DNA of 64,000 nucleotides from an uncultured bacterium (GTDB taxonomy: Bacteria > Desulfobacterota_D > UBA1144 > Nemesobacterales > UBA2774): the NCBI GenBank assembly GCA_963825135.1, contig CAWGRW010000009.1, positions 1,664,001-1,728,000 of the forward strand. Reading direction: 5' to 3'. The position numbers and the translations under genes were made by a program. Under the pieces are notes generated by a model that was not told the DNA's origin, made no database searches, and saw only the letters and a list, made by a program, of their open reading frames with translations. This document shows positions 13,398 through 37,463 of the stretch, piece by piece; the stretch's first letter is position 1, and every line of letters starts with the position of its first letter.

Positions 13398-13429
13398 AAA
13401 CAGTATTGATGGATGTTCAATATACGGAT

Positions 13430-14077
13430 ATGAAGACGTACGGATTGATAAAATTGATTTTTGTCCTGTTATTTGCCCTCTGGCCATTGCGGTTAGCAGG
13501 CTCGCAGGAAGTGCAGGCTCCTTCCGACAGTACCCTGTCGCAGGGCTTACAGGTAATTAAAGACGCCAGAGAAGGCAAGATGGAGACACCGGAACAGAGG
13601 GCCGGGGATTCTGCGGCTGAGGAAAGTCCCGCGGCGCCGGGCCCTGCCGGCGGGCAAACGGGTGTTACGACTCCGGAACAGCCGGGGGGAAAAGACCTCC
13701 AGACGACCCGGGAGGAAAAGCCGCCCTATGATTCCACTGGCATGCGGGACCCCTTTAAACCCTTTATCAAGTTAGTCGATACCCCGGCTTCGCCTTCGCT
13801 GGTGCTGCGTCCTCCGATACAGAGGTACCCGTTAAACCAGTTCAGAATTGTGGGGATCGTATGGATAGGCGGCAAGCCCCAGGCGATGATCGTTGACCCG
13901 GAGGCGAACACATACTTCCTCGGTGCGGGGGACAAGATAGGGAGCAGTGACGGGGAGATAATGGAAGTCAGGGAGAGCGGGATCCTGGTGCAGGAAAAGA
14001 CAAGACTCGAGAACGCATACGGAGAGGCAAAAATCGAAGTGAAACAGTCTGTACTGGCTTTTCAAAACGACCAATGA
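13430..14077 (+). CDS. pilP: Type IV pilus assembly protein PilP (start could be 13406-13430)
   Basis: YDSTGMRDPFKP, PIQRYPLNQFRIVGIVW, G.KIG..DG motifs. Confidence 0.88.
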   Translation: MKTYGLIKLIFVLLFALWPLRLAGSQEVQAPSDSTLSQGLQVIKDAREGKMETPEQRAGDSAAEESPAAPGPAGGQTGVTTPEQPGGKDLQTTREEKPPYDSTGMRDPFKPFIKLVDTPASPSLVLRPPIQRYPLNQFRIVGIVWIGGKPQAMIVDPEANTYFLGAGDKIGSSDGEIMEVRESGILVQEKTRLENAYGEAKIEVKQSVLAFQNDQ

Positions 14078-14126
14078 CAAGAGGATACGTATTCAGGAGG
14101 ACGATTAAGTTAAGGAGGATGGTTTA

Positions 14127-18662: not shown

Positions 18663-18727
18663 AGTATGTTGAGCAGGTGTTTCACGGGTTCCAAGATTTG
18701 ATCAAGTCAATCGGGTTGGAGGGTCGG

Positions 18728-20395
18728 ATGTCTGTTGACGAAAACGAGCTTGAAAGGATGAGGAAAGCGAGAGAGCTTTGGGAGAAAGATTACGGCAGCG
18801 CCTCGAAAAGGGAGGCCGACTATACGACCATCTCCGGGATGGATGTGCCGCCACTCATTACGCCACTTGACTTAAACGGTTTTAATTTTGAGGAAAAACT
18901 GGGTTTCCCCGGCGCGTATCCCTATACCCGGGGTATCCACAGCACTATGTACAGGGGCCGTCTCTGGACCATGCGCCAGTTCGCGGGGTTCGGGACGCCC
19001 GAGGACACCAACGGGCGCTTCAAATACCTGATGGAGCACGGGCAGACCGGTCTCAGCACCGCGTTCGATATGCCCACGCTTATGGGCTACGACAGCGACC
19101 ACGAACGCTCGAGGGGGGAGGTCGGGAAAGAGGGCGTATCGGTATCCTCGCTTGCCGATATGGAGGTACTCTTCGACGGCATAGACCTCGAGAAAGTGAC
19201 GACCTCTATGACCATCAACTGCAGCGCGAGCGTCGTATTCGCGATGTATCTCGTCATGGCCGAGAAGAAAGGGGTCAGCTGGCACAAGCTCCGGGGCACC
19301 CTCCAGAACGATATGCTGAAGGAGTTCATCGCTCAGAGGGAATGGATATCGCCGCCCGAGCCGTCCGTAAAAATCACAGTCGACATTATGGAATTCTGCG
19401 CTAAGGAAGTCCCGCAGTGGCACCCGGTCTCGGTATCCGGCTACCACATCCGCGAGGCGGGCTCGACCGCCGTCCAGGAGCTTGCGTTTACGCTCGCAGA
19501 CGGCATAGCGTATGTGGAAGAAGGCATTAAGCGCGGTCTCGACGTGGACGATTTCGCTCCCCGCCTCTCTTTCTTTTTCAACGTGCACAACGACTTTCTC
19601 GAAGAGATCGCCAAATACAGGGCCGCGAGAAGGATGTGGGCGAAGATCATGCGGGAACGCTTCGGAGCCACGAATCCGAAATCCCTGATGCTGAAAACCC
19701 ACGCGCAAACGGCGGGGGCGAGCCTCACGGCGCAGCAGCCTATAAATAACGTCGCGAGGGTGACGATTCAGGCCCTCGCTGCCGTGCTCGGCGGAACTCA
19801 GTCGCTCCACACGAACTCGATGGACGAAACGCTCGCACTGCCGACGGAGGAGTCCGTTACGGTCGCGCTCAGGACTCAGCAGATAATCGCCGAAGAAAGC
19901 GGAGTCGTGAACACGATCGACCCCTTCGGCGGGAGCTACGTGATGGAATCGCTCACTGAAAGGATAGAGCAGGAAGCGTTCGCTTACATAAACAAGATAG
20001 ACGAGATGGGTGGTATATTCCGGGCTATAGAAACGGGCTATCCCCAGAAAGAGATCGCCGACGCGGCATATAAGTATCAGAGAGAGATCGATACGGGTTT
20101 GAAGACCATAGTAGGGGTCAATAAATACAATACCGAAGGCGAAGTTACCATACCCACACTTAAAATCGAGGAGTGGGTCGAGACGGGTCAGATTGAGAAA
20201 CTCCGTGAGCTCAAGAAAAAGAGAAATAATAAAGCCGTTCAGGCGAGGCTCAGGGATATTGTCACGGCCGCGCGGAACGGGGATAACCTGATGCCTTCCA
20301 TAATTGATGCCGTAAGGGAATACGCCACTCTCGGGGAAATATGCGATATATTCAGGGAAGTGTACGGGGTTTACAGAGACCCGGGCTATTTTTAA
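18728..20395 (+). CDS. B12-dependent acyl-CoA mutase, large subunit (methylmalonyl-CoA mutase family, isobutyryl-CoA mutase-type residues)
   Basis: [46 protein letters not shown]; no fused B12 domain. Confidence 0.92.
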
Positions 20396-20491
20396 CGGCT
20401 GCCGGGTCTGCCCGCAAGCGTCTTATTTCTAAGCCAGGGGCGGAAGGCTTCTCCGTAAAAGAAACATAACTTATTTTTGAGGGCGTTCTGT

Positions 20492-20902
20492 ATGGGTCAG
20501 GGTTCGAGAACCAGGATACTGATAGGGAAAGCGGGCCTCGACGGTCACGACAGGGGTGTAAAGATAGTCGCGCGGGCGCTCCGGGACGCGGGATTCGAGG
20601 TCATTTATACCGGGCTCCATAATACGCCCGAGGCCATAGTCGAGACCGCGCTTCAGGAAGACGTGGACGCTCTTGGGCTAAGCATACTCTCGGGCGCGCA
20701 TAACTTTATTTTCCCGGAGGTCATAAGACTCCTGAACGAAAAAGGCATCGGGGACATAACCGTTTTCGGGGGCGGTATAATTCCCAAGGAAGATGTCGAG
20801 TATCTGAAGAAGATGGGTGTCAAGGCCCTGTTCGAGCCGGGCGTATCGACGGACGAGATAATAAACTGGGTAAGAGAGAATGTTATTCCTAAGAATCTAT
20901 AA
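20492..20902 (+). CDS. Cobalamin-binding small subunit of the acyl-CoA mutase
   Basis: [21 protein letters not shown]. Confidence 0.92.
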
Positions 20903-24036: not shown

Positions 24037-24879
24037 TTATATCTCGACCCTGAACAGCCCTTTGAGGGCGAATCCGAAGACCATCGATAATACGAATACC
24101 AGAACCAGCCAGTGGACGTGCCATTTATATACCTCTATCGAGTTTGCGGGATAGCCGATCTTTATCTGCTTCACCCGGGAGCCTGAGGGCAGAGGCGTCT
24201 GCGCGGGATTCAGGAGCGCGTCACGGAAACCCGAGGCCGACGCCGAGGCAAAGGGAGTGACCTGCACGAGGCCTTGTCCCGAGACCACGACTTTCTGCCG
24301 TATCTCCTCACCCGACACATTAAAGGTCAGATCCCGATCCCCGGCTTTCTGCGCTCGTATCCTCCAATCTATTTCATTCCGATCGGGGATCCTTAACGGC
24401 GGCGTCTCTATCTTAATCCCGGAGCCCGAAGTGAGCGTTACGTCCGAAAGCGGCGCATCGCCGTCATGGAGCTCGAGGGACACTATGGCCGATTCGCCGG
24501 GCTTAAGCGGCCTGTGGCCGTACCAGCTGTCGAGCTGGATCAGGATCAGCGCGAGCGGTATCATCATGAAGAGCATCGGCTTAAGCGCATATTTGATGTA
24601 TTTGAGGTTGTAAATAAAGATATTTTTCTGGGCAGAGAGCACTATCCCGACCTCGTCCTTGAAAAGACTGAGCTCGAAAATATATGCCCTGATTTTGTTC
24701 TTGGTCTCCCTTATCTTTTGCTGGTCGGACGTGTAGCGGAATATTATGAGCATTATTATTCCGATAAGGAGCGAAAAGAGGGCGAGCGACCATATGGGGT
24801 CGATATTTTTGAAGGGACTGACAAGGATTCCGAAAATCCAGGCCGCATTACGATTGAGATTCCATATAATTTCCGTCAT
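24037..24879 (-). CDS. Membrane protein resembling DUF106/EMC3/TMCO1 (Oxa1 superfamily), with an inserted soluble domain
   Basis: TM1 - SDQQKIRETK coiled coil - LKPMLFMMIP TM2 - beta-rich insert - HWLVLVFVLSMVFGFALKGLF TM3; pattern recognition only. Confidence 0.55.
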   Translation of the reverse strand: MTEIIWNLNRNAAWIFGILVSPFKNIDPIWSLALFSLLIGIIMLIIFRYTSDQQKIRETKNKIRAYIFELSLFKDEVGIVLSAQKNIFIYNLKYIKYALKPMLFMMIPLALILIQLDSWYGHRPLKPGESAIVSLELHDGDAPLSDVTLTSGSGIKIETPPLRIPDRNEIDWRIRAQKAGDRDLTFNVSGEEIRQKVVVSGQGLVQVTPFASASASGFRDALLNPAQTPLPSGSRVKQIKIGYPANSIEVYKWHVHWLVLVFVLSMVFGFALKGLFRVEI

Positions 24880-24970
24880 ATATTATTCATCCCTAGTTTT
24901 CCGGCGTAATTACCGTACAAAACCCAAAGATTTCAAGCGTATAAAATCCACGTCGTAAACATCCGCCGGG

Positions 24971-26887
24971 TCATTCAATATAACCCAAAGCCTTTATCTT
25001 CCTTATTTCCTCGTAGTTGTGTTGAGCGCTTTCGGAATGTGCAACGACGTCCGGATTGAAGCTGGTTAAAGCTGACAGCAGACGTCTACGAACGTCCTCG
25101 ATCTTATCTGAACCGAAGAGGTTCTCCTTCTCTCGATAGTCACTCTCGAGGTCGTATAATTCAAAAGTGCCTTCCTTCGTTTTTTCGATAAGTTTCCATT
25201 TCCCCATAATGACTGCTCTCTCGGGAGTCGTGCTCTCGGCGTCGTCACATTGCTGACTGAATATCAATTCTTTTCCTCCGTTATCGGCGTGTGTCCCGTA
25301 CAGGTTCACGCCTCCGAAGTTATCGTTCGGCAGTCCGCAGGTCTCGATAATCGTCTTGGCGATATTTCTGACTTCGACATTCTGACCGACGTTTGTTCCC
25401 TTACGCCCGTTCTCGAACGGGCTGTACATAATAAGGGGGACGTGAATGATCTCGTTGTACAGGCTGGCCGCATGACCGAACCTCCGTCTCTCCAAAAACT
25501 CTTCTCCGTGATCCGCGGAGAGAATTATTACGGTGTTCTTGTCCAGTCCGAGTTCCTTGACGGCATCGATCAACCTGCCGAAGTTCTGGTCCGTGTACGA
25601 AACCTCCTCATCGTATGTGTCTATAACATATTGGATGTCATCCGGGTTGAGGGATTTTGTGATTTCCTTCAGTCTATCTTCCGTAAGCGGAACATCTATA
25701 TTGCTTGGATTTTCTTTTCTGTACCCGTACTCGGGGTGATGAATATATATGGAGTGCGGGTCCATGTAATGAACCCAGAGAAAGAACGGTTCGTCCCTGT
25801 ATTCCCTCAGGTATTCGATTGCTTTATCGGTTACCAGGTGCGATGTAATGCTATCGGGCTTCAAGACGGAGTCCTGGTCAAAAATATCGAAACCCTGAGA
25901 AAACCCAAACCCTTTACTCACGTATACGTTGGAGACGACGGCGATCGTCTCATAAAAATTATTTTTCATATACTCTGCTAGCGTAAGGAGGCTGTCATTC
26001 AGAATGAATTTGCTATTGAACTCTCCTATTTGAGACGGATAGAGAGAAGTTTGTATTGAGGCCACGGATGGGTAAGTCCAGGAGGCCTGTGCGAAAGCGT
26101 TCTCGAAGAGGATTCCCTCGCTGGTGAATTTGTCGATATTAGGCGAGGTATTCCTCGCGTATCCGTATGCTTCTAAATGGTCGGCCCTCAGAGTATCTAT
26201 CAGGACTAGAATTACGTTCGGGCCTCGGAGCTTATTGGATTTCCCGTACAATGGAATGAAAATGTTCGAAGCTAAAAGCATCGCGATGACGCCGACTCCG
26301 ATAGGACGTATACCTTTTGAAGCGATTATTCTTCTAAAATACCTTTGAAATAATCCGGGGATCCCTGTCCTGGAAACCAAGTATGTGAGACAGAATGTAA
26401 AAATAAGGCCCGAAACCGCCGAGGCGAGTATAAATATATAAAAAGTTTCTTTCGGGGCGTAGCTCAATTCTCCCAGCCGTGCCGTGAGGGGGTTCCCCTT
26501 GAGGAATCCGATGATATCCCTGTAAAATAAGAATGAAAAGTAAGACAACAGCATAATTACGGCGACTGAGAGTATGAAGGAATAAATAATTTTTTCTCCG
26601 CCGGATTCGGTTTTTGCAATATGTGCGCTGTTCCTGCGGGCAATGGCTCTCATTAAGATGTAAATCGATACGAGCACAAGGAATATGAATAGCGATACAA
26701 GGAAATAAAAATTCATATAATCCGGCAATTCGAAGAGTATGAGATTGAATAATCCGTAATGAACGTAGCGGTTATGGATGATATGGGTGGCCCACGTCAG
26801 GAGTCCGCACAGAAAGGCCAATATTACTGCCAGGCTGACCAGGCCCGTAAGCTCACGGGCGTTATTTTTAATGTATTCTCGAATCAA
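24971..26887 (-). CDS. Multi-TM membrane protein with sulfatase-like domain (Thr at nucleophile position)
   Basis: PNVILVLIDTLRADH, SWTYPS, WVHYMDPH, SADHGEEF, C-terminal KIKALGYIE. Confidence 0.85.
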   Translation of the reverse strand: MIREYIKNNARELTGLVSLAVILAFLCGLLTWATHIIHNRYVHYGLFNLILFELPDYMNFYFLVSLFIFLVLVSIYILMRAIARRNSAHIAKTESGGEKIIYSFILSVAVIMLLSYFSFLFYRDIIGFLKGNPLTARLGELSYAPKETFYIFILASAVSGLIFTFCLTYLVSRTGIPGLFQRYFRRIIASKGIRPIGVGVIAMLLASNIFIPLYGKSNKLRGPNVILVLIDTLRADHLEAYGYARNTSPNIDKFTSEGILFENAFAQASWTYPSVASIQTSLYPSQIGEFNSKFILNDSLLTLAEYMKNNFYETIAVVSNVYVSKGFGFSQGFDIFDQDSVLKPDSITSHLVTDKAIEYLREYRDEPFFLWVHYMDPHSIYIHHPEYGYRKENPSNIDVPLTEDRLKEITKSLNPDDIQYVIDTYDEEVSYTDQNFGRLIDAVKELGLDKNTVIILSADHGEEFLERRRFGHAASLYNEIIHVPLIMYSPFENGRKGTNVGQNVEVRNIAKTIIETCGLPNDNFGGVNLYGTHADNGGKELIFSQQCDDAESTTPERAVIMGKWKLIEKTKEGTFELYDLESDYREKENLFGSDKIEDVRRRLLSALTSFNPDVVAHSESAQHNYEEIRKIKALGYIE

Positions 26888-27008
26888 TTAAGCTTCCCCA
26901 TTCTTTTAATCGCAAGAGGCTCGTGCCGATTGAATCGGGATGACGGGGATCTGACCGGTCGCAATATATCAGGCGGTGGTTTGTTCCGAGCCTCATATAA
27001 TAAAGAGC

Positions 27009-27209
27009 TCACTCTATATAGCCGAGGCCTTTAAGCCTCTTGGTTACTTTTTCTTCGTCCTCGGGCGATTGTTTCTGCCCCTTCTTTATTTCCCTTTCGA
27101 GCGTGTACGCGATAAATTCTTCAACGGAGGTGTAACCCGTTTCCTCCGCGTATTGCTTGCATCTCTCGAGCAAATCCTTGTCGAGCTTTATTTTCGAGCC
27201 GCCAAACAT
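27009..27209 (-). CDS. Small ribbon-helix-helix-like protein with C-terminal RLKGLGYIE tail
   Basis: AGGAGG RBS; KIKLDKDLLERCK...GYTSVEEFI; EDEEKVTKRLKGLGYIE. Confidence 0.8.
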   Translation of the reverse strand: MFGGSKIKLDKDLLERCKQYAEETGYTSVEEFIAYTLEREIKKGQKQSPEDEEKVTKRLKGLGYIE

Positions 27210-27233
27210 GATTGTCCCTCCTTGATATAGGCG

Positions 27234-29240
27234 TTAATTATGCGCGGAACTCTCTTCCTTGAAAATATTATTTCCGATCATCCCGGCCTGCTTCGGGATT
27301 CCGAATTCCTCGAGGACTGTCGGAGCGAGATCGGTGAGCGCGGGGTTCTGCATCTTTATTTCCTTATTTGAAAGCAGGATACCCGGTACGAGCGCGGCTT
27401 CCATAAGGTGGTCTCCGCTCCATTTCTGTTTGTTGTCCCTCAGGATCTCCTTTGGAAAGCTTCCGAGGACGGTCTCCCAGGAAGCGCGGTATCCCCTATT
27501 GTAACCCACAATGAGATCGGGCGCATCCTTCAAATATGGCCCGCTGTATATCTCTTCCGCCCTATATACTCTGGTAATGACCTGCTCCCCGTTTTTGGGG
27601 TCCCTTATGGATAAAAGCTTTTCGGAAATCTCGTCGAGCAGCTCTTTCCGCTCCCCGGGCTCCACGATCCCCTTATATTCCCTTCCCTTCAAGTTCAGAA
27701 ACAGCCCGTTAAACCCGACCCCGTAAGCGCGTGTTTTGCCCCAGTCGACGTTCCTGAAAAACTCTCCCTCGGATTCGTCGGTAAGGTATGAATAACCGTT
27801 CTCTTTGAGCCAGGTATTCAGGTTAAACGCCCTGTAGAACGGGGCAAAGCCGTGATCGGACAGCACGATGACGGTTGTATTGCCGTCGATGCTGTCGAGC
27901 ACGCGCCCGAGCACTCTGTCCATGTCTATATAGGTGTTTTCGATCACGAGCTTGAGCTTGCTCCCAGCATCATAAGCCGGGTGCTTCGGGTCCATGGTGC
28001 GCCAGAACATATGGGAGAGCTGATCGACCCTTCCGATATAAAAGAATAGCAGTCCGGACCGGAAGTTCTCGAGCTCGTAGCCCAGCATATCCTGCTCTTC
28101 TCCGAATACTATATTCGTCTGGTCGAGGAATTCGCCGTCTCCGAGCACGAATTCCGACAACGCCTTTGAATCTTCCGGTATTCCCTGTGTATAGAATAGA
28201 CCCACGTTCTCCGCTATCTTGCCCGAGTAGTCCCTGGGTGTGGAGATCGGTAGGGCCGGATCCGACGGGTCTATGTTTACGGGCGTTACGTATAGTTTGA
28301 AATTCGGTCTCACTTCTTTTAGGTAAAAGCGCACGATCCCGCTCACTTTTTCGATATGGGGAAGGAGCTCGTACTTTAATTTTACCCAGTCACTCCACTC
28401 CCCTTCCTTGAGAATAATTTCATCGTTCTGTACGGAAATCTTCGCCACGGGATTCTCAGGGTCCAACAAGACGGTGAAATCGACTTTGCTTTCGGGCGTG
28501 TCCTTTCTGAACGTATTGATCGGACCGGGGAGTCTGCCGTGTACCTTGTTCCTGAAAACATCGACAGGAAAAACCTTGCCGCCCGACAGGTTCTGGAATT
28601 TGTCCGTGTCTTCGTCCGTGTAGTAGGAATAGGTCCCGTACGTCCCCTGTATGTCCGGCGTTCCCATGCCGGAGACTTGGCGGGCCTTATCGTCCGTTGT
28701 CGGAAAATTTGCGGGTACGCGAAATATTGTCGTATGTATCCCGCGCTCAGACAGGTATTCCCAGAAAGCCTTACCCTGGCGCAGCAAGGAAACCTTGCCC
28801 GCGGACAGGGGAAGCACCCATTTGCCGATTTTTACCGTTTTTGACGCCGATTCGGTCCTGGAGGTAGAAAGGTAAGGGACGATGCTATCGGGGTCCCTGT
28901 GAATGAAGTCGAATATGCCGTGCCCGCCCGGGTTCATGCCGGTAATGAAGTTTGACCAGGCGACAGGGCTTTGGGGCGGGATGCTTGTCGCAAGCTTCTT
29001 GAAGCCGCCCGACTCGCTGAGTTTCTTAAAATTAGGGAGCTTCCCCTCCGCCATAAGTTTATTCAGTATGTTGGGGTCCATGCCGTCAAAACCGATGATG
29101 ATCATTTTCTTATCCGCCGCGTTTGCCTTGGCCTGAGAGGGCGTATCGCCGCTTCCGCACCCGGCGGACACGAGCATGAAGGCGGTTAAAACGGAAATGA
29201 GCACCGCATTGATTGAACGGATTTTAAAGCTCCGCTTCAT
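27234..29240 (-). CDS. Alkaline-phosphatase-superfamily (type I phosphodiesterase/NPP-like) lipoprotein; start uncertain (29240 or 29288)
   Basis: Lipobox SAGC; IIGFDGMDP, PPQSPVAWS, VLSDHGF, WSGDH. Confidence 0.85.
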   Translation of the reverse strand: MKRSFKIRSINAVLISVLTAFMLVSAGCGSGDTPSQAKANAADKKMIIIGFDGMDPNILNKLMAEGKLPNFKKLSESGGFKKLATSIPPQSPVAWSNFITGMNPGGHGIFDFIHRDPDSIVPYLSTSRTESASKTVKIGKWVLPLSAGKVSLLRQGKAFWEYLSERGIHTTIFRVPANFPTTDDKARQVSGMGTPDIQGTYGTYSYYTDEDTDKFQNLSGGKVFPVDVFRNKVHGRLPGPINTFRKDTPESKVDFTVLLDPENPVAKISVQNDEIILKEGEWSDWVKLKYELLPHIEKVSGIVRFYLKEVRPNFKLYVTPVNIDPSDPALPISTPRDYSGKIAENVGLFYTQGIPEDSKALSEFVLGDGEFLDQTNIVFGEEQDMLGYELENFRSGLLFFYIGRVDQLSHMFWRTMDPKHPAYDAGSKLKLVIENTYIDMDRVLGRVLDSIDGNTTVIVLSDHGFAPFYRAFNLNTWLKENGYSYLTDESEGEFFRNVDWGKTRAYGVGFNGLFLNLKGREYKGIVEPGERKELLDEISEKLLSIRDPKNGEQVITRVYRAEEIYSGPYLKDAPDLIVGYNRGYRASWETVLGSFPKEILRDNKQKWSGDHLMEAALVPGILLSNKEIKMQNPALTDLAPTVLEEFGIPKQAGMIGNNIFKEESSAHN

Positions 29241-29313
29241 GTTATGACTATCGCTTTTGTTTCTCTTGCCCTCGGGATTAGACGCCATAGTGTTTATAAC
29301 TATAACCGGGGTT

Positions 29314-31491
29314 TCACACGGCCCTCGCTTTCTTTTTGTCTTCTTCCTTGAATTCTCCCCCGACTCCCGCAACGTCCCTGCGTAACTCGCCGAAAAGAGG
29401 CTTCCCTTTCATATAGTTGGGAATTCCCACACCGAACAGCCTGAGCACGGTCGGGGCCATGTCGATAAGGTGAGGGTTCTCCTTCGCGATCTTTCGGTTT
29501 GAAAAAATGACGCCCGGAACTATTTTGGGGTCGACGCAATGGTCGCCGCTCCAGTGTTTTGTGTTGTCTTCGAATACGTGCTCTGTAACGCGTCCCACGG
29601 CGCATGTCCACGAGCTTCTATACCCGGCGTTGTACCCAACCAGCAGGTCGGGGGCGTCGTGTGTGTAGGGCCCGGACGAAGCACTGTCCGTGTCTATGAC
29701 CTCGCGGATGGAAATTGTTCCGGTCTGCTCATCCCTGAGACCCGTGAGCTTGCTAATGAGCTCGGATTTAAGGAGATCGACCGCTTCCCCCTCCTCGACG
29801 ATGCCTTTCATTTCCCTTCCCTTTCTGTTGATGAATATGCCCGCGAGCCCGAGCGAAAACGCCCGCGTCCCCTCCCAATCCACGTTCTGAAACCAGTCGC
29901 CGCTCGTGCTCTGACCGTCCCTCAGTTTGAGGTAACCGTTCTGAAAGAGCCAGCTGTTCAAATTCACGCCCCTCCTGAACTGAGTGAATCCGTGGTCGGA
30001 TATCACCATCAGCACCGTCTTGTCGTCGGTGTATTCGAGCGCTCTCCCTATGAGACCGTCCATCCTGACGTAGAGGTCCTCTATGACGTTTTTGTATTTT
30101 TCCGTCTCCTTTCCCCTGTTCGCAGGGTGTGCGTCATCGAGGCACCGGAAGAACATATGCTGGACCCTGTCGGTCGTGTCGAATACGCACGTGCAGAGCC
30201 CCCTGGGTGTTTTCTCGAGGGCGTTAAAAAACATTTTCTCCCGCTCCTCGTAAAGCAGGTAGGACTGCTCCAAAAAGGCTTCTTCGTCTATTACGCCTTC
30301 GTTGAGCGCCCAGGTGTCTTCCGCGAGCCCGAGTGTGCCGAACGAGCCCTGGAGCTTGGCCAGGTATATGGAATATATGAAAGGGTGGGATATCGGGAGC
30401 GCCGGGTTTTCAGGGTCTATGTTGATCGGAGTCACGTACATGTCGAATCCCTCATCGAGCGCGTTTATATAGAAGCGGCAAATACCGTGGACTTTGATGC
30501 CCAGGCCGGCGGGGAACGAAATTCTAATCCACGGGGAGTAGGTTCTGGGAGCGAGCTCGAAACTCTGCCCCGATATCCCGATGACCGCTTTCCCCCCCTT
30601 TTTATCTATTTTTATTTTAAGCGGGATGGTTATTTCTTCACCGTTTCTGACCAGGCTGTTATCGGGGCCGTATAAGAGGGTGTCTATGGCTCCGTCTTGT
30701 ATTTCCACGAACCTGCTTACCCCTCCGGTCTCCACTTCGTTCTTGCTCCTGTCGGTGGTGTAGTGGGAGAACGTCCCCTGGGACCCCTTGAGATCGGGGA
30801 CGCACATACCCGAGAGCAGGACACCGTTGAATTTTTCAGGAGGGAAAGTTATCGGGACGCGCAGAACCGAGCTCCATATGCCGTGCTCGCCGAGTATCTT
30901 CCAGAACGGGCGGCCCTTCCGGAGGAGCTTCATCCTGGGCTTGCCTAGCGGGATCATGTATTTCCCGATCGGGAGCACCTTGGACGCTTTCCCTATTTCG
31001 GCCGACGAGAGCATGGGCTGATACGTGCAGGGGTCTCTCGTAATGAAATCGAATATATTATGGTGAGAGGGATCGACCCCGGTCATGAACGAAGACCAGG
31101 CGACCGGCGATATGGAGGGATAACTCGTGGCAAGGGATGTGAAAGTGCCCTGTTCCTTCAGTCTCACAAAGTTAGGGAGCTTCCCCTTGTCCATGAATTC
31201 TTCTGCGAGCTTCGGGTCCATGCCGTCAAGCCCTATTATTATTACTCGGCTTACGCTGCTTTTCGTCCTCGAGCCCCTGCGCCAGAGGGCTCTTACCGCA
31301 TAGCGGAATGGCCAGGAAAGCAGGTAAAAGACGGCGAGGGCGAAGGTTACTATCATTACGAGAAAAGACGAGAGGAAGGCGAAACCCGCGCCGGGCCCTA
31401 TATACGCATAGGCACTGTCGGTTGCGGCAGGGTAGAGGGCCAGTAAAGTAACGAATATGGCTGCGAGTCTTTTCAGATTATTCTTCGACAT
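29314..31491 (-). CDS. Alkaline-phosphatase-superfamily (NPP-like) protein with signal peptide, YIGPGAG motif and TM anchor
   Basis: AYA-YIGPGAG-TM-RR; IIGLDGMDP, PSISPVAWS, ISDHGF, WSGDH. Confidence 0.85.
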   Translation of the reverse strand: MSKNNLKRLAAIFVTLLALYPAATDSAYAYIGPGAGFAFLSSFLVMIVTFALAVFYLLSWPFRYAVRALWRRGSRTKSSVSRVIIIGLDGMDPKLAEEFMDKGKLPNFVRLKEQGTFTSLATSYPSISPVAWSSFMTGVDPSHHNIFDFITRDPCTYQPMLSSAEIGKASKVLPIGKYMIPLGKPRMKLLRKGRPFWKILGEHGIWSSVLRVPITFPPEKFNGVLLSGMCVPDLKGSQGTFSHYTTDRSKNEVETGGVSRFVEIQDGAIDTLLYGPDNSLVRNGEEITIPLKIKIDKKGGKAVIGISGQSFELAPRTYSPWIRISFPAGLGIKVHGICRFYINALDEGFDMYVTPINIDPENPALPISHPFIYSIYLAKLQGSFGTLGLAEDTWALNEGVIDEEAFLEQSYLLYEEREKMFFNALEKTPRGLCTCVFDTTDRVQHMFFRCLDDAHPANRGKETEKYKNVIEDLYVRMDGLIGRALEYTDDKTVLMVISDHGFTQFRRGVNLNSWLFQNGYLKLRDGQSTSGDWFQNVDWEGTRAFSLGLAGIFINRKGREMKGIVEEGEAVDLLKSELISKLTGLRDEQTGTISIREVIDTDSASSGPYTHDAPDLLVGYNAGYRSSWTCAVGRVTEHVFEDNTKHWSGDHCVDPKIVPGVIFSNRKIAKENPHLIDMAPTVLRLFGVGIPNYMKGKPLFGELRRDVAGVGGEFKEEDKKKARAV

Positions 31492-31578
31492 TAAGCTCGG
31501 TATTCTAATGGACTTTTTACGTTATGTCATTCCTCATCGGTGTATCGCACGTTACTACGGGAACCCAGTTTGTAAGGG

Positions 31579-33639
31579 CTACTGGATGTAATTTAACGCC
31601 TTGAGTTTCTCTATCTTTTCTTTGTCCAGAGCAACCTTCTCGGTGCTTGAAACTCCGAGCTCTCTGCTCAGCATCTCGGACTCCTGATTGTGATTATTCA
31701 ACAGGTTTTTTGCCTGGTCGGTTGTCGGCTTGTTTTGCAGCAGCGCCAGAGGGTTCTGCTCTCCGGGATCTGTCTTCAGGTCGTAGAGCTCTGCTCGCCC
31801 CGTTACGAGGCTCTCTATGTATTTGCTGCTCTTAAAAATCACCCCTTCCCTGTTTTCGTAATAGAGAAGGCCCGTGCTTATTAACGGCTCCTCGACAAAC
31901 GCGCCCGGGTTATCCGTTAACAGCGGAACAAGGGATTCGGCCGTGGCGGGTTCGCTTTCGTTCGGGATTCGCACGATTTCGAGAACGGTAGGCATGAGGC
32001 TCTGAGTCGTGACCTCCTGCTCCACTATCTTGCCGGTATGCGCGCCGGGCAGCTTCACGATGAGCGGGACATGAATCAGCTCGTTATATAGCGTGTGGCC
32101 GTGCTCGAACCCGTCATGGTCCCAGAACTCCTCGCCGTGATCGCTCGTCAGGATTATGAGAGAGCTCTTGTACAGGCTCTGCTCTTTAAAGGCGTCAAGC
32201 AGTCTCCCGATGTTCGCGTCTACATAGCGGACCTCACCGTTATAAAGCTCTTTTATCCATTTCCTTTGTGATGCGTTCGGGGCGAAATGCCCGGACCTGA
32301 TTGTCGCCGCGCTGCTTAACTCGTATCCGATGGATTCGTCGGGCACGGCATTCTTTGATATATATTCCCTCGGCGGGGTATAGGGTAAATGCGGGTCATA
32401 ATAATGTACCCAGAGGAAGAAATCGGAGTCCTGGTTCTTCCCGATCCAGTCGATAGCCATGTCGGTGAGCTCCCCGGTCGAGGCGTAGATTTTCAGCTTA
32501 TCCGGGAACGTTTTTTTTATCACGGTCATGCCGAAAGAGTTAACTATTGCCTCGCGCTTCGGGTAAAAATCATATTGCAGGAACCCCTGGTCCATATTGA
32601 ATTCCGGCTGGAGATAGAAATTGTCGCCTATAGCCTGTGTGTAATATCCCGAATCCCGCAGGTATTCGGCGAGCGTACGGAATTTATCGGGGAGTACGGA
32701 ATCAGCGGCGTATGTCTTATGAACGGTGGGCGAGAGTCCGGTCATCATAGACGAGAACGACGGCAGAGTCCACGGGGCCGCCGAGAACGCGTTTTTAAAC
32801 AATGTCCCGTCTGTAGCCAGCGAGTCGATGTTCGGGGTCGAAGTCTCCTTGCCGCCGTATGAAGAGAGAGCGTCCGCCCTCAGGGTGTCTATCGTAATCA
32901 GTATCACATGTTTTATCTTGTGATTTGCCGAAGATTTGAAATTATTCACGGCAGGCTCGTATTTTTCTCTTGTCGAAACGAAAATTACGGGGCAGACGAC
33001 CAGCGCCACAACCATCAAAACGGAGAGCGGGATTATCGTGTCGAATTCGGTTTTCGCGAAAACAAAAAATAATCCCAGCGTCAAAAGGGCGATCGAGAAA
33101 AACCCGAGGGACAAATCATAATCCGTCAGCTCGCTGTGTTTATTCAGCCAGACTAGCAGCATGACTTCGGTGAGCACGAGCGGCAGCAGGATGCTCAGCA
33201 TGGAGCCTGCGAGTCCCCCGTATTGAGAGCGGTTTATTTTTTTTGCGGTATAGTAAGTTATGAGTAGCGCGAAAACCGAAATAATGAGGAAGACCAGCAG
33301 CTCCATCCTGTAAGACGCCCAGTTCGCATCGAAATCGTGATAATTGATCGAGATAAGCAGCTCCGTGACCCCGATAAATACCCCGAGCGATATCGCGGCC
33401 GGAACCGCGTCCAGGCCGAATCTCTTTACGAGCCTTGCTCCCAAGAGATACCACAAGACCAGTAGCAGAATGAGAGAGAACCCGGCGGTTACCGCTATCG
33501 GCAGCAGGATTGCCCTGAACATTATGAATTTGGCGTCGGTAATGATTATCCCTATCGATGCGTCAAGGGCGGCTATCGAGAGAGACAGGGCTAGTGCCGT
33601 TATGATTATAAGTCTGGTCGAGCGATCGGATTCCCGCAT
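31579..33639 (-). CDS. Multi-TM membrane protein with sulfatase-like domain (Thr at nucleophile position)
   Basis: Several N-terminal TM helices; ITIDTLRAD, PWTLPS, HYYDPHLPY, TSDHGEEF, C-terminal KLKALNYIQ. Confidence 0.85.
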   Translation of the reverse strand: MRESDRSTRLIIITALALSLSIAALDASIGIIITDAKFIMFRAILLPIAVTAGFSLILLLVLWYLLGARLVKRFGLDAVPAAISLGVFIGVTELLISINYHDFDANWASYRMELLVFLIISVFALLITYYTAKKINRSQYGGLAGSMLSILLPLVLTEVMLLVWLNKHSELTDYDLSLGFFSIALLTLGLFFVFAKTEFDTIIPLSVLMVVALVVCPVIFVSTREKYEPAVNNFKSSANHKIKHVILITIDTLRADALSSYGGKETSTPNIDSLATDGTLFKNAFSAAPWTLPSFSSMMTGLSPTVHKTYAADSVLPDKFRTLAEYLRDSGYYTQAIGDNFYLQPEFNMDQGFLQYDFYPKREAIVNSFGMTVIKKTFPDKLKIYASTGELTDMAIDWIGKNQDSDFFLWVHYYDPHLPYTPPREYISKNAVPDESIGYELSSAATIRSGHFAPNASQRKWIKELYNGEVRYVDANIGRLLDAFKEQSLYKSSLIILTSDHGEEFWDHDGFEHGHTLYNELIHVPLIVKLPGAHTGKIVEQEVTTQSLMPTVLEIVRIPNESEPATAESLVPLLTDNPGAFVEEPLISTGLLYYENREGVIFKSSKYIESLVTGRAELYDLKTDPGEQNPLALLQNKPTTDQAKNLLNNHNQESEMLSRELGVSSTEKVALDKEKIEKLKALNYIQ

Positions 33640-33728
33640 TTCGCTATATTATTCCCTTCCGGAAGTACCGTAGTCAATTGTATATAATCTGTAGATTATG
33701 CCCCGAAGTCTGCGAATGGCTAATTCCC

Positions 33729-35160
33729 CTAATTCCAAATCTTCTTCAGTCTGCCGAATAATCCCCCGTTCCTGTAGTTCGTGAGGCTTTTGCCAATCGT
33801 TTCCCCTTCGAGTCTCATCCCGAATAAATCGAGAACCGTGGGGGCTATATCATAAATCTTTATTCCATCCGTATAACCCTGCGTCAGGTTTCCGGTCCTG
33901 CAACCGTTCTCGTTAAGAATGAATATGCCGTTCCAGTCGTGGTTGGCTTCGTCAGAGCCGGTATCGTTCTCGAATGTGTGTATGTTTCCGAGACCCACGC
34001 TCCCGACGGAGCGCCAGCCGAGGGCTCCGAAATAGACTATGAGGTCGGGGGGGACGCCGTTTGCCTCCCTGTAGATGTCCTGTGGCCTGTATGCCCTCGT
34101 TCCGATATTCTCGCCGTCCGGTCCGGGGATCGCCTCGATCCTGCGGACGAGCTCCGAGCGGATCTTTTCATAATCCCCGGGCTCTATTATCCCCTCGGGC
34201 TCCCTGCCTTTCACGTTCATGAAGAGGCGCCCGTAATACCCGCCGTCCCCCCACGCGAGCGTCTTCCGCCAGTCGATTTCCACGTCGGCGATTCTCGTCT
34301 GCTCCCGCGGGTAGTCCTTCAGCGTCAGATACCCCTCCTTGATAAGCCATTCGTTGAAGCATATGCCCCCTTCCATTTTCCTCGCCCCGTGATCCGATAC
34401 CACTATCACGACCGTATCTTCGGGGACGAGCGACAATAACTCTCCGATTTCTCTGTCGCAGTATTTATAATAATCCTTGATCGAATTCTCGAACGGATTG
34501 CCCGGCTCGAATTTCCTGTGCTCGGGGTCTATGAAGCTCCAGAACCCGTGATGTATGCGGTCTACCCCCATTTCGACGAGCATGAAGAAGTCCCAGGGTT
34601 TTGTTTTAATGAGGTGCTTCGCCACCTTGAAATGTTTTTCGGTCTTTTCGTATATCCTTCCCAGGAGAGCCTCCTTGTCGTCCGTCCTGAAGTTCTCGAC
34701 GTCGAGCACATATCCGCCCGATACCTCTTCTATCTCGTCCTTCAGCGGGGCGGGGTAGGTGTAGTTGCTCTCCGTCGACGGGGCGAGAAAACCGCTAACG
34801 ACGCATCCGTTGACGGGCTTTGGAGGGTATGTTTGGGGCACGCCGAGGAGGACTACTTTCTTTCCGGCGCGGGAAAGTATGTCCCACACCCTGTCGCATT
34901 TTACCGCCGTCGCGTTGGCGATCGTGTAGCCGTCATAGGAATAGTCCTTCCTGTTTCTGAAGCCATAATACCCGAGCTGACCCGGGTCCTTTCCGCTCAT
35001 CATCACCGGCCCATGCGGGGACGGTGATCGGAGGATGGCAGGACAGCATGGGCCCGTACGCGCCCTTTTCCATGAGTTTATTGAGGTTAGGCAGCTCTTC
35101 TTTCCATCCGAATACGAACCTAGGGTCGGCGCAGTCAAGCCCGATAATAAGAAGCTTCAT
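33729..35160 (-). CDS. Cytoplasmic alkaline-phosphatase-superfamily phosphodiesterase-like protein (one frameshift at ~35008)
   Basis: MKLLIIGLDCA...PPITVPAW then shifted MMSGKDPG...DRIHH...VSDHG...DEANH; no signal peptide. Confidence 0.85.
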
Positions 35161-37125
35161 TCACTGCTTCCTTCTTCTGAGGAGAGTGAGCGCCGTTACA
35201 AAGGCCGGAATAAGCAGGATAAACGTATTTGTAAAGGCAGTTCCTGTAACGTCGGCATTCGCGGGGCCGTAAACGGAGCAGCCGCCGCTGTCGTTTGAAC
35301 CATCGTTACCGGGGGGAGGAGTCGGGCCGGGACCACCGCTGTCTCCTACAGCCTCCTGGACCGCGGCAAAGGCGTTTATGCTGCCGAAACCGGAGATATC
35401 ATCGAACCCGGCGGGAGTAATGTCGTCAGCCGTGCCTGTTATTATGTCGGTGACCTCTTCCACCTGTCTGGTTGCGGCAATGGAGGACTCCGCGGAATTC
35501 GAAGCGTTGAAATCAGCCCCGAAACCGAGGGCCTGGAGCACGAGCGCCGCTACTCCCGCAGCGTGGGGAGCCGAGGCCGACGTGCCGGCGAAATTGAAGA
35601 ACCCCGGAACGGTCGTCGATACCCTGTTCGGGGCGACGATTGTGGGGGTATCCCTGTCTTCGAGAAGCGGAGCGGCCCGTAGGGACGATGCATCCGAGAT
35701 TGTAACTGTAGGAGGAAAGAATATTGAAGACGGGCCTTCAGAGCTGAAGGACTCTACATCGCCTTCGGAGGTGGCGCCTACGGATATGACTCCGGGCGCC
35801 GCCGGATGGCCGTAGACGCTGTTCCCGGGGACGTTGAACTCTACTGGCGTGCCGCCAAGATTAAAGAATATCTCTAGCGTCTGGTCTCCACCGCTGAATT
35901 TATTGATAACTATATCGAAAAAGCCCGTACCGGGTCCTTCGTTCGAAACCGATGCTATTTCAATCGGGTCGTCGTCTCCGTTCTGAGTATCCGTGCTCGA
36001 ACCGAGAATATCACCGGTATCGGGATCGACGAGGAAGAGGTCGTAGTCGTCAGAGGCCTCCCCGAAGGGGTTACTCCACTGGAGCACGACGACCGAGCTC
36101 CTATTAGGCGGAAGCGCGATTGTCATGCCTACGTCACTCCCTTCGCCGGCCGCCAGCCCGAAATCGTGGAGATCGGTATCCGCATCCCCAGGGTCCGTAT
36201 CCACGTAGAGGGCCTGGTAATGGGCCCCACCGTCATTGCCCGCAGAGGATACATAAACAATCCCGTCCTCCACCGCCTGAGCCACCGCCTGGGCTACCGG
36301 TCCGTCCTGGAAGAAGGGCTCCGAGAGAAACCCTACATCGTCTATTATCACGTCGACGCCGTTATTTTTGAAGAAGTCTATTGCCTGTATGAAATTCAAG
36401 GTGCTTGTGCCGTTATGAAACGCCAGGTCGGCACCCGGAGCTATGTCGTGCACGATTTCGAGGATGGCCGTGCCCTCGTCCCCGCTGCCGGGATCGCCTA
36501 CCTGCACTACATTCGGGAGGTCTCCCGTAAGCTGGGAAGCGGCGATGCTGTCGACTCCGTCCGAAATGACGCCCACTTTTATTCCCGAGCCGTCCACTCC
36601 GAATGTCTCCCTCGCCGCGTCAGACCCCATGATCCCGTCCCCTTCGGTGGTAACTGAGCCCGCTCTTGGATACCCGTAGCTGGGCGGGGTGATTCTGGAG
36701 ACGAATCCGAGCTCGGCCGCCTTCTCGAGGCTGCCGCCGGGCAGCCAGCCCTGGACGATTTTCAATTTTTCATTTATGACATCGGGTATTAGACCGAGCG
36801 CTGTCAGCTGCCCGATGTCCTCGCCGCTCGATTCACTCATGTGGACGTAAACCTCGATGTTCCCGGAATCGTCCACCTTTACGAGCGGCGTGGAAAAATC
36901 CTCCGCGCTAAGGCTTTGGGCACCATTTCTCGATGACGTCGCATCGGCCATGTTATTAAGGACATTGGTCAGACTCGGGCTTATTTTGGAACTACCAGCG
37001 GTTTTATCTTTCCGGGCTCTGAGGACGGACACGTCCGGATTCTGAAGGGCCGATGCGTCAGGGACGAATTCAAAATAGAGGGACGAAGAGCATAAAATTA
37101 TAAGAGCAACAAGGGCTTTTCTCAT
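35161..37125 (-). CDS. Secreted S8/S53-like serine peptidase with C-terminal GGC-TM-RRRK sorting signal
   Basis: GIKVGVISDG, DEGTAILEI, SAGN, GTSASAPH; tail SGGCS...LLIPAFVTALTLLRRRKQ. Confidence 0.85.
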   Translation of the reverse strand: MRKALVALIILCSSSLYFEFVPDASALQNPDVSVLRARKDKTAGSSKISPSLTNVLNNMADATSSRNGAQSLSAEDFSTPLVKVDDSGNIEVYVHMSESSGEDIGQLTALGLIPDVINEKLKIVQGWLPGGSLEKAAELGFVSRITPPSYGYPRAGSVTTEGDGIMGSDAARETFGVDGSGIKVGVISDGVDSIAASQLTGDLPNVVQVGDPGSGDEGTAILEIVHDIAPGADLAFHNGTSTLNFIQAIDFFKNNGVDVIIDDVGFLSEPFFQDGPVAQAVAQAVEDGIVYVSSAGNDGGAHYQALYVDTDPGDADTDLHDFGLAAGEGSDVGMTIALPPNRSSVVVLQWSNPFGEASDDYDLFLVDPDTGDILGSSTDTQNGDDDPIEIASVSNEGPGTGFFDIVINKFSGGDQTLEIFFNLGGTPVEFNVPGNSVYGHPAAPGVISVGATSEGDVESFSSEGPSSIFFPPTVTISDASSLRAAPLLEDRDTPTIVAPNRVSTTVPGFFNFAGTSASAPHAAGVAALVLQALGFGADFNASNSAESSIAATRQVEEVTDIITGTADDITPAGFDDISGFGSINAFAAVQEAVGDSGGPGPTPPPGNDGSNDSGGCSVYGPANADVTGTAFTNTFILLIPAFVTALTLLRRRKQ

Positions 37126-37463
37126 TAAGTCACTTCCCACCCGCACGATTCGGTTACTTTAATATTATAACCAATCGTTTACGATGTATACGTATTAATT
37201 AGCGAGGGCAGGATTTGATAAATTATTCCTGATTCTAGTGGTTTACCAACACCTAATTAGGCATCCGATAAAAGAGCGCGCCCTCGGCAAGTTTAAGCCC
37301 GGAGGCCCGGTTTACTACCCGGCGACCATCGTTAATTCTTTAATCAAACGCTCGGGATCATCGGTTACATCCGTATTAATTACGGGCGCTCCGGCATATG
37401 CGCCTCCCCTGACGTATTCCGACGTTTCATCGGGCGGCATTTTACCGGAGTCAATTCGAATTT

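Follow-up and report, generated by a model that had tools for sequence, protein, structure and literature searches.

Transferases of the LtaS/EptA type are defined by a block of several transmembrane (TM) helices, a domain on the outer side of the membrane and a covalent threonine intermediate, and nucleotide pyrophosphatases/phosphodiesterases (NPPs) cleave nucleotide phosphodiester and pyrophosphate bonds. Pathways of sulfation that depend on 3'-phosphoadenosine 5'-phosphosulfate (PAPS) combine Sat and CysC with a sulfotransferase, for example of the NodH, Stf0 or RaxST type; we know of no described sulfation pathway with a pair of NPP-type enzymes at the two faces of the membrane, with an Oxa1-type protein or with a ribbon-helix-helix (RHH) protein ending in an LGY tail. 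Tails of RHH antitoxins dock on toxins, the tail of CysE docks in CysK, and DltX carries a C-terminal tyrosine motif. Within the Oxa1 superfamily, YidC is called an insertase and a lipid scramblase (PMC11997395), and DUF106 is described as an archaeal and eukaryotic family (PMC5868721). Here we analyse a locus of eight open reading frames (ORFs), named g1 to g8, on a stretch of 64,000 nucleotides from an uncultured bacterium (GenBank assembly GCA_963825135.1, contig CAWGRW010000009.1, positions 1,664,001 to 1,728,000), which as a whole is called the window below. Four of these ORFs encode two NPP-type enzymes (g4 and g5), a small RHH-like protein with an LGY tail (g6) and an Oxa1/DUF106-type membrane protein (g8). 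A sequence-only reading of the locus had seen in it a candidate envelope-modification system that moves a sulfo or phospho group across the membrane.

The conserved core of the locus is g4, g5, g6 and g8. It is a widespread, undescribed inner-membrane module, and the window holds its Dadabacteria version. The usual neighbours of the core are a small PAPS-type sulfotransferase and often Sat or CysC; in the lineage of the window, g2, g3, g7 and g1 are found instead. We propose, with a probability of roughly one third, that the module straddles the membrane and modifies the envelope in connection with sulfation. Its small protein g6 is encoded in at least 547 species-level genomes, and what the data indicate is a widespread module, unstudied so far, with ties to activated sulfate.

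Conservation and co-occurrence of the core

All relatives used here stem from metagenome-assembled genomes (MAGs), the closest public ones being labelled Candidatus Dadabacteria or Thermodesulfobacteriota, with g4 identities of up to 90%. Among 55 loci centred on g4, g8 was present in 45, g6 in 46 and both in 44. Eight of the ten loci lacking g8 lie on cut contigs, and the two others, both from Planctomycetota, have downstream DNA yet gave no g8 match. A second set was centred on g6 and consists of 80 loci kept of at least 547 g6 relatives confirmed among 600 matched stretches; here, g8 was found in 77 and an NPP gene in 79 loci. At least 10 lineage groups have retained the core, and when 895 neighbour ORFs were clustered, no families besides NPP, g8 and g6 reached 9 or more of 11 lineage groups. 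In a profile of 120 genomes of the phylum, 26 encode g8, and g6 was detected in 21 of these as opposed to none of the 94 g8-negative genomes. The tail-bearing C-terminal part of the sulfatase-fold proteins (see below) occurred in 24 of the 120 genomes, 22 of them g8-positive. The exceptions in this profile are incomplete genomes or fragmentary matches. As kin are not independent, these counts are patterns and not tests.

The idea that the locus is a conserved unit was borne out for g4, g5, g6 and g8, with g6 and g8 co-occurring strictly within the phylum, and the components proposed to belong together do occur together and do keep their tyrosines (77/80 and 79/80 of the g6-centred loci; invariant tail tyrosine, see below). 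It has to be given up for the subtilase gene g1 and the two sulfatase-fold genes g3 and g7, which had been counted as parts of the same system and turned out to be lineage-specific additions of the Dadabacteria group. Full-text searches of the literature returned no bacterial DUF106-type protein tied to enzymes of the alkaline phosphatase (AP) superfamily, no RHH-LGY protein and no description of the tail. NCBIfam provided no family-level name for any enzyme of the locus, every match being far below its cut-off.

The NPP-type pair g4 and g5

The enzymes g4 and g5 are paralogues with 40% identity. We aligned 24 g4-type sequences (48 were available in full length) with 12 of the g5 type (31 available) and found D89, Ser128, D441, H445, D499, H500 and H651 to be invariant in 36/36 rows. 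Ser128 aligns with the nucleophile threonine of solved NPPs (LTFPNH). The PF01663 fold, the metal ligands and the position of the nucleophile are shared with NPPs (Xanthomonas NPP 2gsn, ENPP1) and with the phosphonoacetate hydrolase PhnA. In contrast to the solved NPPs, to which g4 and g5 align over short stretches only (E about 1e-6 to 1e-5), the two enzymes have a serine instead of the threonine of the known enzymes as well as an insertion of about 220 residues, which splits their Pfam match into two stretches; a further difference from known NPPs is that a TM hairpin is predicted to anchor g4 at the cytoplasmic face. In the ESM Atlas, g4 retrieved only generic "alkaline phosphatase family" clusters.

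The N-terminus of g4 is composed of a basic segment, a short hydrophobic stretch, a small-x-small site (AYA), the sequence YIGPGAGFAF, a TM helix and a run of Arg/Lys residues, followed by the catalytic domain. An AxA-type site, with small residues at -1/-3, precedes Y[IV]GPG[AV]G in the g4 relatives compared, all of which keep this motif, and the genome of the window has a YIGPGAG-type motif only in g4. Cleavage is predicted before YIGPGAG, which would then form the mature N-terminus. The proteins of the module were placed inside or outside according to the positive-inside and signal-peptide rules. For g4, this predicts a cytoplasmic catalytic domain with YIGPGAG facing out; whether the N-terminus is cleaved or persists as a hairpin, either reading would leave the catalytic domain inside and YIGPGAG outside. 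The likely start of g5 is Met44 of a longer ORF (Table 1), and its relatives from several phyla carry a lipobox Cys or Tat-like RRxFLK leaders. We therefore predict g5 to be an exported lipoprotein of the periplasm.

That all five AP-superfamily enzymes of the locus possess Ser or Thr at the nucleophile site, as had been read from the sequence, is correct (Ser128 in g4 and g5, Thr in g2, Thr271 in g7 and g3). Enzymes on both sides of the membrane had been anticipated as well; g2 and g4 are indeed predicted inside and g3, g5 and g7 outside, the catalytic domain of g4 being predicted to be cytoplasmic and not on the outer side.

The Oxa1/DUF106-type protein g8

According to its AlphaFold2 (AF2) model (mean predicted local distance difference test, pLDDT, 87.4), g8 has three TM helices, of which the first two are separated by a long cytoplasmic coiled coil (between TM1 and TM2) and the last two by an Ig-like beta-sandwich of about 125 residues (between TM2 and TM3). 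The helices of the model (28-50, 53-72, 77-120 and 257-271) belong to a three-TM core with a coiled-coil hairpin between TM1 and TM2. A profile built from 43 sequences (the window protein, 26 of 120 listed relatives and 16 locus-encoded proteins) matched the archaeal DUF106 protein MJ0480 (5c8j) in the PDB with E 2.1e-9 over positions 7-118, the next match following at E 4.4. In a wide fold search with VIA, the model gave 7tut_8 as the best row (Z 12.4, root mean square deviation 3.5 A, 137 residues) and Z 8.5 for the next; chain 8 of this multipass-translocon entry is, we take it, TMCO1. YidC (3wo7) reached Z 7.6 in VIA, and Foldseek matched the Ig-like domain only. The g8 protein of the window has no Pfam match of its own, and PF01956 is touched by 7 of the 43 sequences at E up to 1 (best 2.1e-5); several relatives are named "DUF106 family" by JGI. 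Thus, g8 is a divergent Oxa1/DUF106 branch that is mostly missed by PF01956, and its earlier description as DUF106/EMC3-like was confirmed by the MJ0480 profile match and the fold.

The three-TM core and the coiled coil between TM1 and TM2 are shared with MJ0480/Ylp1 (5c8j), EMC3, TMCO1, GET1 and, distantly, YidC. Compared with the MJ0480/EMC3 group, g8 is bacterial, carries in the loop between TM2 and TM3 the Ig-like domain (about 125 residues), which would lie in the periplasm, and represents an extra copy beside YidC, as the genome of the window also encodes a canonical YidC elsewhere. Moreover, its gene has a fixed place in an operon together with genes for AP-superfamily enzymes and for a small protein with a tail; its role as an insertase is putative. 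With g8, the DUF106/EMC3/TMCO1 side of the Oxa1 superfamily, described as archaeal and eukaryotic (PMC5868721), would gain a bacterial branch. The task of this branch would be specialised and bound to a set of enzymes, not one of general protein insertion.

The small protein g6 and the LGY tail

In g6, a protein of 66 amino acids, the RHH-like part is followed by an acidic linker and the tail RLKGLGYIE; export signal and TM segment are absent. The RHH signature is sub-threshold, with matches to RHH_1 in 5 of 20 members (best E 0.0046) and to a FitA-like RHH in 3 of 20 (best E 8.4e-4), and the PDB returned weak matches to Arc (E 0.017) and to the RHH part of NikR (E 0.094). The tail tyrosine (Y64) is invariant in 20/20 rows (20 of about 46 sequences aligned). 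In the window's genome, the ending LK-x-L-[GN]-Y-I-[EQ] occurs only in g3, g6 and g7. The tail tyrosine of the g7 family is invariant in 70/70 rows of an alignment made of g7 and g3 of the window, 65 of 120 listed relatives and three locus genes, the 120 being those listed of 2707 matches. The LGY tail ends 105 of these 120 listed relatives, and 33 of 44 short forms among them start with a hydrophobic N-terminus. It follows that the tail is a family trait of exported Thr-type sulfatase-fold proteins in many phyla.

The tyrosine motifs pointed out by the sequence-only reading are therefore real and as conserved as catalytic residues (YIGPG in the g4 relatives, the g6 tail and the g7-family tail), although the tail of g3 and g7 is family-wide and not special to this locus. 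Behind an acidic linker, the LGY tail also ends two NPP-type proteins (L018, L131) and two helical-repeat lipoproteins (L036, L038). From this distribution, the tail behaves as a tag shared by sulfation-linked proteins that are predicted on both sides of the membrane. A short C-terminal tag common to regulators, an adenosine 5'-phosphosulfate (APS) kinase, lipoproteins and enzymes offers a concrete starting point for a binding experiment.

A second small RHH-like paralogue with an LGY tail is the first gene before sat in three loci (L034:5052-5360, L130:2249-2503, L142:2388-2606), and in another it precedes a g2-type gene and cysC (L113:427-654). This paralogue looks like a dedicated regulator of sulfate activation. 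Two CysC proteins (APS kinases) have an acidic linker and LGY tail appended (L113:2094-2693, L142:3851-4450), and a CysC-like protein of 136 amino acids with an LGY tail adjoins sat (L052:15852-16262). Four further CysC pattern matches resemble the ordinary C-terminus of CysC and were not counted as tailed.

A complex of g4 (residues 75-725), g8 and g6 was predicted with g6 as the partner, and gave ipSAE scores of 0.58, 0.59 and 0.60. None of three controls scored above 0.00, not even the one in which g4 was replaced and g8 kept. Contacts agreed to at least 96% between runs, the pLDDT of the partner was at least 73, and the verdict of the tool was "weak support". Among solved complexes, 116 of 157 reach the ipSAE mark, among mismatched pairs 2 of 215, and values of 0.60 or under belong to 18 of the 157 and to both mismatches; as our runs used their own alignments and three chains, these counts are rough guides. 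The model provides a lead that g6 may sit on g4 rather than on g8. With RHH antitoxin tails, the CysE tail in CysK and the C-terminal tyrosine of DltX, the LGY tail has in common that a short conserved C-terminal peptide occurs on unrelated proteins, a likeness to docking-tail systems by analogy only, with g6 on g4 seen in a weak-support model (0.59 versus a best control of 0.00). It differs from them by its own sequence (an acidic linker, then L-[KR]-x-L-G-Y-[ILV]-x) and by its occurrence in both compartments.

Linkage to activated sulfate

In the 80 g6-centred loci, we identified a PAPS-type sulfotransferase of about 200 amino acids in 39, CysC in 19 and Sat in 11 cases, and at least one of the three in 45/80. 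Outside the Dadabacteria and Versatilivorator groups, 44 of 63 loci contain sulfotransferase, Sat or CysC, a share that becomes 38/45 if only those with at least 3 kb of upstream DNA are counted. The Versatilivorator/Terriglobia group has a sulfation gene at one of eight loci. In 37 of 38 cases, the sulfotransferase gene lies 67-1343 nt from the core. All 17 aligned small sulfotransferases match PF13469; their matches to solved phenol, tyrosine-ester and protein-tyrosine sulfotransferases (E 0.004-0.03) are too weak for calling a substrate. For the 55 g4-centred loci, tblastn detected sulfation genes at nine. Among 28 neighbour ORFs from six of these 55 that we scanned with Pfam, those directly upstream of g4 at a Planctomycetota locus code for Sat, a short Thr-type AP-fold protein and CysC; a sulfotransferase turned up at another locus.

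Compared with the PAPS-dependent sulfation pathways (Sat/CysC plus sulfotransferase), related loci thus place the core beside the same genes, whereas the locus of the window is devoid of a sulfotransferase. The proposal to look for sat or cysC neighbours paid off in other lineages (44/63) but not in the window's own (0/9), and the donor pathway is, as had been stated, absent from the window, which has no sulfotransferase, Sat or CysC. Genes of the g2 type (at least 50% identity) are present in 19 of the 80 loci, none of which has a sulfotransferase, and the two groups without a sulfotransferase are those with a g2-type gene. This is a hint that g2 may carry out the donor step where the sulfotransferase is absent.

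In Planctomycetota, a leaderless Thr-type (WTAPSH) AP-fold protein of 305-325 amino acids is encoded between sat and cysC (L034:6760-7737, L039:8982-9899 and relatives), and in Bryobacterales its gene overlaps the start of g4. The protein matches the STM4013/SEN3800 model with E 7e-19, which is below the cut-off.

The genome of the window (94% complete) encodes a CysP-like sulfate permease beside CysH as well as a CysC in a GDP-sugar/carbamoyltransferase cluster (C9:711419-713262; C9:2694556-2695158). A search of this genome with PF01507 gave CysH only. We also considered whether the NPP module substitutes for a missing ATP sulfurylase. In one family of the phylum (f1), Sat was found in 0/32 and g8 in 23/32 genomes, in a second (f8) both in 0/37, and in a third (f2) Sat in 15/15 and g8 in 2/15; nearly all genomes of f1 and f8 have CysC despite the lack of Sat. 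The substitution was rejected, as f8 lacks both Sat and g8, and f2 has Sat along with g8 in 2/15.

Lineage-specific genes: g3, g7, g1 and g2

The sulfatase-fold enzymes g3 and g7 are confined to loci of the Dadabacteria group, where the copy number of g7 varies from 0 to 2 in relatives. At the place of the nucleophile, g3 has WTLPSF and g7 WTYPSV, each with a threonine; this residue (Thr271) is invariant in 70/70 rows of the g7-family alignment. The C-terminus of g3 reads KLKALNYIQ, and this tail is kept in relatives. With respect to the sulfatase motif C/S-x-P-x-R, on which formylglycine depends, Thr replaces Cys/Ser and Phe (g3) or Val (g7) replaces Arg. The motif was found in none of the 120 listed g7 relatives, 116 of which have W-T-x-P, and because of its absence g3 and g7 cannot be formylglycine sulfatases. 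We are dealing with a large family of annotated "sulfatases" that have a Thr nucleophile and a conserved tail, for which the present annotation is probably wrong.

The AF2 model of g7 (pLDDT 89.6) shows five long helices before residue 217, and the charged loops fit a topology with the N-terminus inside, five TM helices and the domain outside; the catalytic domains of g3 and g7 would accordingly face the periplasm. The last 20 residues of the model have a pLDDT of 57-68. Top Foldseek matches of the model are S1 sulfatases (E about 1e-21), and it is these enzymes (choline and carbohydrate sulfatases) that come closest to the catalytic domains of g3 and g7 in sequence and fold, the difference being the missing C/S-x-P-x-R. 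To LtaS, EptA (MCR) and PbgA, g3 and g7 are similar in that a multi-TM block precedes a sulfatase-fold domain with Thr that would be extracytoplasmic, as judged from charge. They differ from LtaS/EptA in their greater closeness to S1 sulfatases and in carrying the LGY tail, and the NCBIfam models for EptA, LtaS, CptA and MCR gave 15-40 bits on g3 and g7 at cut-offs of 404-1250.

In another genome of the same order (G008; contigs C72, C62, C63 and others), we counted ten matches to the tail-bearing C-terminal part of the sulfatase-fold proteins, four of which stand in a row adjoining g8, a local expansion. A protein of 729 amino acids at L018:3479-5668 represents a third architecture, in which a multi-TM N-terminus, an NPP-type domain and an LGY tail join features of g3/g7 with those of g4/g5.

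The subtilase-fold protein g1 has a signal-like N-terminus, its likely true start being the ATG at 37125, and was found in 13 of the 55 g4-centred loci, all from the Dadabacteria group. The Asp, Asn and Ser motifs are present, while a DEGT motif with Glu at the place expected for His occurs in 11/11 relatives (assessed by eye, without alignment to a solved subtilase), which suggests a Glu-for-His variant or an inactive protease. A PDB search with g1 gave no match at E <= 0.001. What had been called a sorting tail is conserved insofar as the C-terminal GGCS, TM and RRR elements are kept in 11 of 12 relatives compared, but no sorting domain of NCBIfam matched (best JDVT-CTERM, E 0.4).

The NPP-type protein g2 has no signal peptide; its N-terminus opens directly on the first beta strand of the fold, and Thr in ITVPAW takes the place of the nucleophile. 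An ORF of 75 amino acids (34933-35160) carries this N-terminus (MKLLIIGLD...ITVPAW), and an ORF of 469 amino acids continues in another frame, so that the true start of g2 is the ATG at 35160. Relatives have an intact g2 as an ORF of 476 amino acids. The extra G near 35006 is missing in four relatives by alignment (L001, L003, L014, L017), and metagenome contigs of relatives (runs X1 and X4; 90-95% identity) skip one base at 35006. The frameshift is either a real mutation, making g2 a pseudogene, or an assembly error in the GG/CC run. The description of g2 as a cytoplasmic NPP-like enzyme holds in view of its PF01663 match (Table 1) and the lack of a leader, but the ORF is broken by the insertion of one base.

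Proposed mechanism and alternative explanations

According to our proposal, the module would modify the envelope with a sulfate- (or phosphate-) ester group, sulfo and phospho both being compatible with what we see. A donor step in the cytoplasm, catalysed by the sulfotransferase elsewhere and possibly by g2 here, would produce an ester-linked, membrane-bound intermediate, on which g4 would act at the inner face through a covalent intermediate at Ser128. The role of g8 would be to insert and hold the g4 hairpin, and it may let a polar group cross by way of a hydrophilic groove; on the outside, g5, along with g3 and g7, would transfer or trim the group. As to g6, its tail could dock on g4, the protein acting as a regulator or adaptor. 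If the envelope is decorated in this manner, the module bears on how bacteria place sulfate or phosphate esters outside the cytoplasm, where neither PAPS nor ATP is available.

Several points weigh against this proposal. AP-superfamily enzymes are mostly hydrolases, so that transferase chemistry is something we infer here, every statement on topology rests on sequence rules, and g8 could be merely an insertase. The loci of the window and the Dadabacteria group have no sulfotransferase, Sat or CysC (0/9 loci), the window's genome as a whole gave neither a Sat in a PF01747 search nor a homologue of the small sulfotransferase by tblastn, and its cysC is located about 1 Mb away in a nucleotide-sugar cluster. 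As 101 of the 120 phylum genomes have cysC, finding it together with the module is uninformative. The candidate donor enzyme g2 is frameshifted in the assembly of the window, and the pattern of g2 versus sulfotransferase rests on about three lineages, the kinship of the genomes applying here as to the other counts. The clustering of the 895 neighbour ORFs revealed no substrate, lipid carrier, glycosyltransferase or flippase gene conserved beside the core. Lastly, the g7 tail is not confidently placed in cis by the AF2 model, and the g6 complex reached "weak support" only, without contacts that would place the tail in the active site.

Among the alternatives, the one that we regard as possible, if somewhat doubtful, is that g8 is an Oxa1-type insertase or chaperone devoted to the g4 hairpin, perhaps also to further membrane enzymes of the locus, with the enzymes working separately and nothing crossing g8. 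The protein belongs to the insertase superfamily, and since YidC is already encoded in the genome, it would be a specialised extra copy. Its co-occurrence with g4 (45/55 and 77/80 loci) fits, and so does the N-terminus of g4, whose arrangement of a signal-like segment, a short outside stretch, a TM helix and a cytoplasmic domain resembles small hairpin substrates of YidC, phage procoat being an example. Yet such a function leaves the strict tie to g6, the conserved Ig-like domain predicted in the periplasm and the exported g5 unexplained, and likewise why an ordinary YidC could not insert one hairpin. The complex prediction, silent on binding between g4 and g8, lost its g6 score when g4 was replaced and g8 kept. 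The second alternative concerns nucleotide housekeeping: the NPP-type enzymes could hydrolyse APS, PAPS, 3'-phosphoadenosine 5'-phosphate (PAP) or related compounds, and the RHH-LGY protein would be a regulator of the pathway whose tail senses the state of the enzyme. Membership in PF01663 agrees with this, as does the position of the second RHH-LGY paralogue as first gene before sat (L034, L130, L142) or before a g2-type gene and cysC (L113), the usual place of an autoregulator; the CysC proteins of L113 and L142 bear the same tail, and the model of g6 on g4 (weak support, 0.59 against a best control of 0.00) would suit it as well. We nevertheless deem it unlikely. There is no nucleotide pool outside the cell for the exported g5 and the tailed enzymes of the periplasm, a soluble phosphatase would suffice without an anchor, an invariant N-terminus on the outside and an Oxa1-type partner, and DNA binding by g6 is putative, its RHH matches being sub-threshold.

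Hydrolases make up most of the characterised members of PF01663 and PF00884, S1 sulfatases are the nearest fold matches of the g7 catalytic domain, several enzymes of the locus are predicted to be exported and the flanking genes serve housekeeping, all of which would be in keeping with a set of unrelated nutrient-releasing enzymes, AP-superfamily members and a protease, that merely lie next to each other. Independent scavenging is nonetheless very unlikely in our view: co-occurrence is strict and gene order fixed across phyla, two of the enzymes are predicted in the cytoplasm, the formylglycine motif is missing from all 120 sulfatase-fold relatives listed (W-T-x-P in 116), the neighbour clustering gave no conserved transporter or Pho-type regulator, and the linked genes make activated sulfate instead of consuming sulfate esters. 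We give just as little credit to the covalent relay favoured by the sequence-only reading, in which, by analogy with DltX, a sulfo or phospho group would travel on the conserved tyrosines (g6 tail, g4 N-terminus, g3/g7 tails) from a cytoplasmic donor to the surface. These tyrosines are invariant, one of them sits at the predicted outside N-terminus of an otherwise cytoplasmic enzyme (g4), and aryl sulfate esters are competent sulfuryl donors; the linked sulfotransferase resembles, if faintly, protein-tyrosine and phenol sulfotransferases (E 0.004-0.03, which does not suffice by far to assign a substrate), and the weak-support model of g6 on g4 (0.59 versus 0.00) would agree with a relay. However, g6 has no export signal or TM segment, while the tails of g3 and g7 are predicted to be periplasmic. 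The tail is moreover found on many exported Thr-type proteins (105/120; 33/44 of the short forms) and on lipoproteins, which resembles a docking tag more than a carrier, no modified residue has been observed, and the g6-g4 model offers no contact map for docking in an active site. A bolder variant of our proposal of a sulfation-linked module, decidedly improbable as a whole, would treat the LGY tail as the docking tag of a sulfation pathway and g4 and g5 as its receptors on the two membrane faces, which together with g8 would pass an activated sulfuryl or phosphoryl group across. In this variant, g4 would gather the tailed cytoplasmic proteins (RHH regulators and some CysC) and g5 the tailed periplasmic ones (Thr-type sulfatase-fold proteins and lipoproteins); the invariant tyrosines of the tails and of the outside N-terminus of g4 would act as covalent carriers and the Oxa1 groove as the conduit, delivering the group to an outside without PAPS.

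Layout of the locus and flanking genes

The eight ORFs are arranged head to tail on the minus strand (window 24037-37146), in agreement with the co-directional run of eight genes reported from the sequence alone. By Pfam, the locus comprises one S8 subtilase (g1), three PF01663/NPP proteins (g2, g4, g5; cut-off of PF01663 23 bits) and two PF00884 proteins (g3, g7). All features are compiled in Table 1.

Table 1. Genes and sequence features of the locus, in window coordinates
Feature	Position	Strand	Description
g1	35161-37146	-	subtilase-fold protein with GGCS-TM-RRR C-terminus; PF00082, 63.5 bits
g2	33729-35160 (main ORF 33729-35138)	-	soluble NPP-type protein, frameshifted; PF01663, 108.7 bits
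extra base (G on the coding strand)	35006		shifts the frame of g2; absent in relatives
g3	31579-33639	-	about 7 TM helices and sulfatase-fold domain; PF00884, 164.3 bits
g4	29314-31491	-	TM-anchored NPP-type protein, core; PF01663, 105.9 bits
g4 YIGPGAG codons (residues 30-36)	31384-31404	-	predicted mature N-terminus, outer face
g5	27234-29243 (longer ORF to 29372)	-	predicted exported NPP-type paralogue, core; PF01663, 131.3 bits
g6	27009-27209	-	66-aa RHH-like protein, tail RLKGLGYIE (codons 27012-27038), core
g7	24971-26887	-	5 TM helices and sulfatase-fold domain, tail KIKALGYIE (codons 24974-25000); PF00884, 158.7 bits
g8	24037-24879	-	Oxa1/DUF106-type membrane protein with Ig-like insert, core; AF2 model and profile

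A promoter scan detected 23 promoter-like sites where 10.7 were expected, and terminator-like sites at chance level; operon boundaries did not emerge from it. The locus is flanked on the plus strand by a gene for a DinG-type helicase on one side and the RNase R gene on the other. The rest of the window contains ordinary Gram-negative housekeeping genes such as PilMNOPQ, gyrA and a monofunctional transglycosylase. Unrelated to the module, the segments 11096-16055 and 18677-20902 harbour a complete PilM-N-O-P-Q (secretin) cluster and the large and B12-binding subunits of methylmalonyl-CoA mutase.

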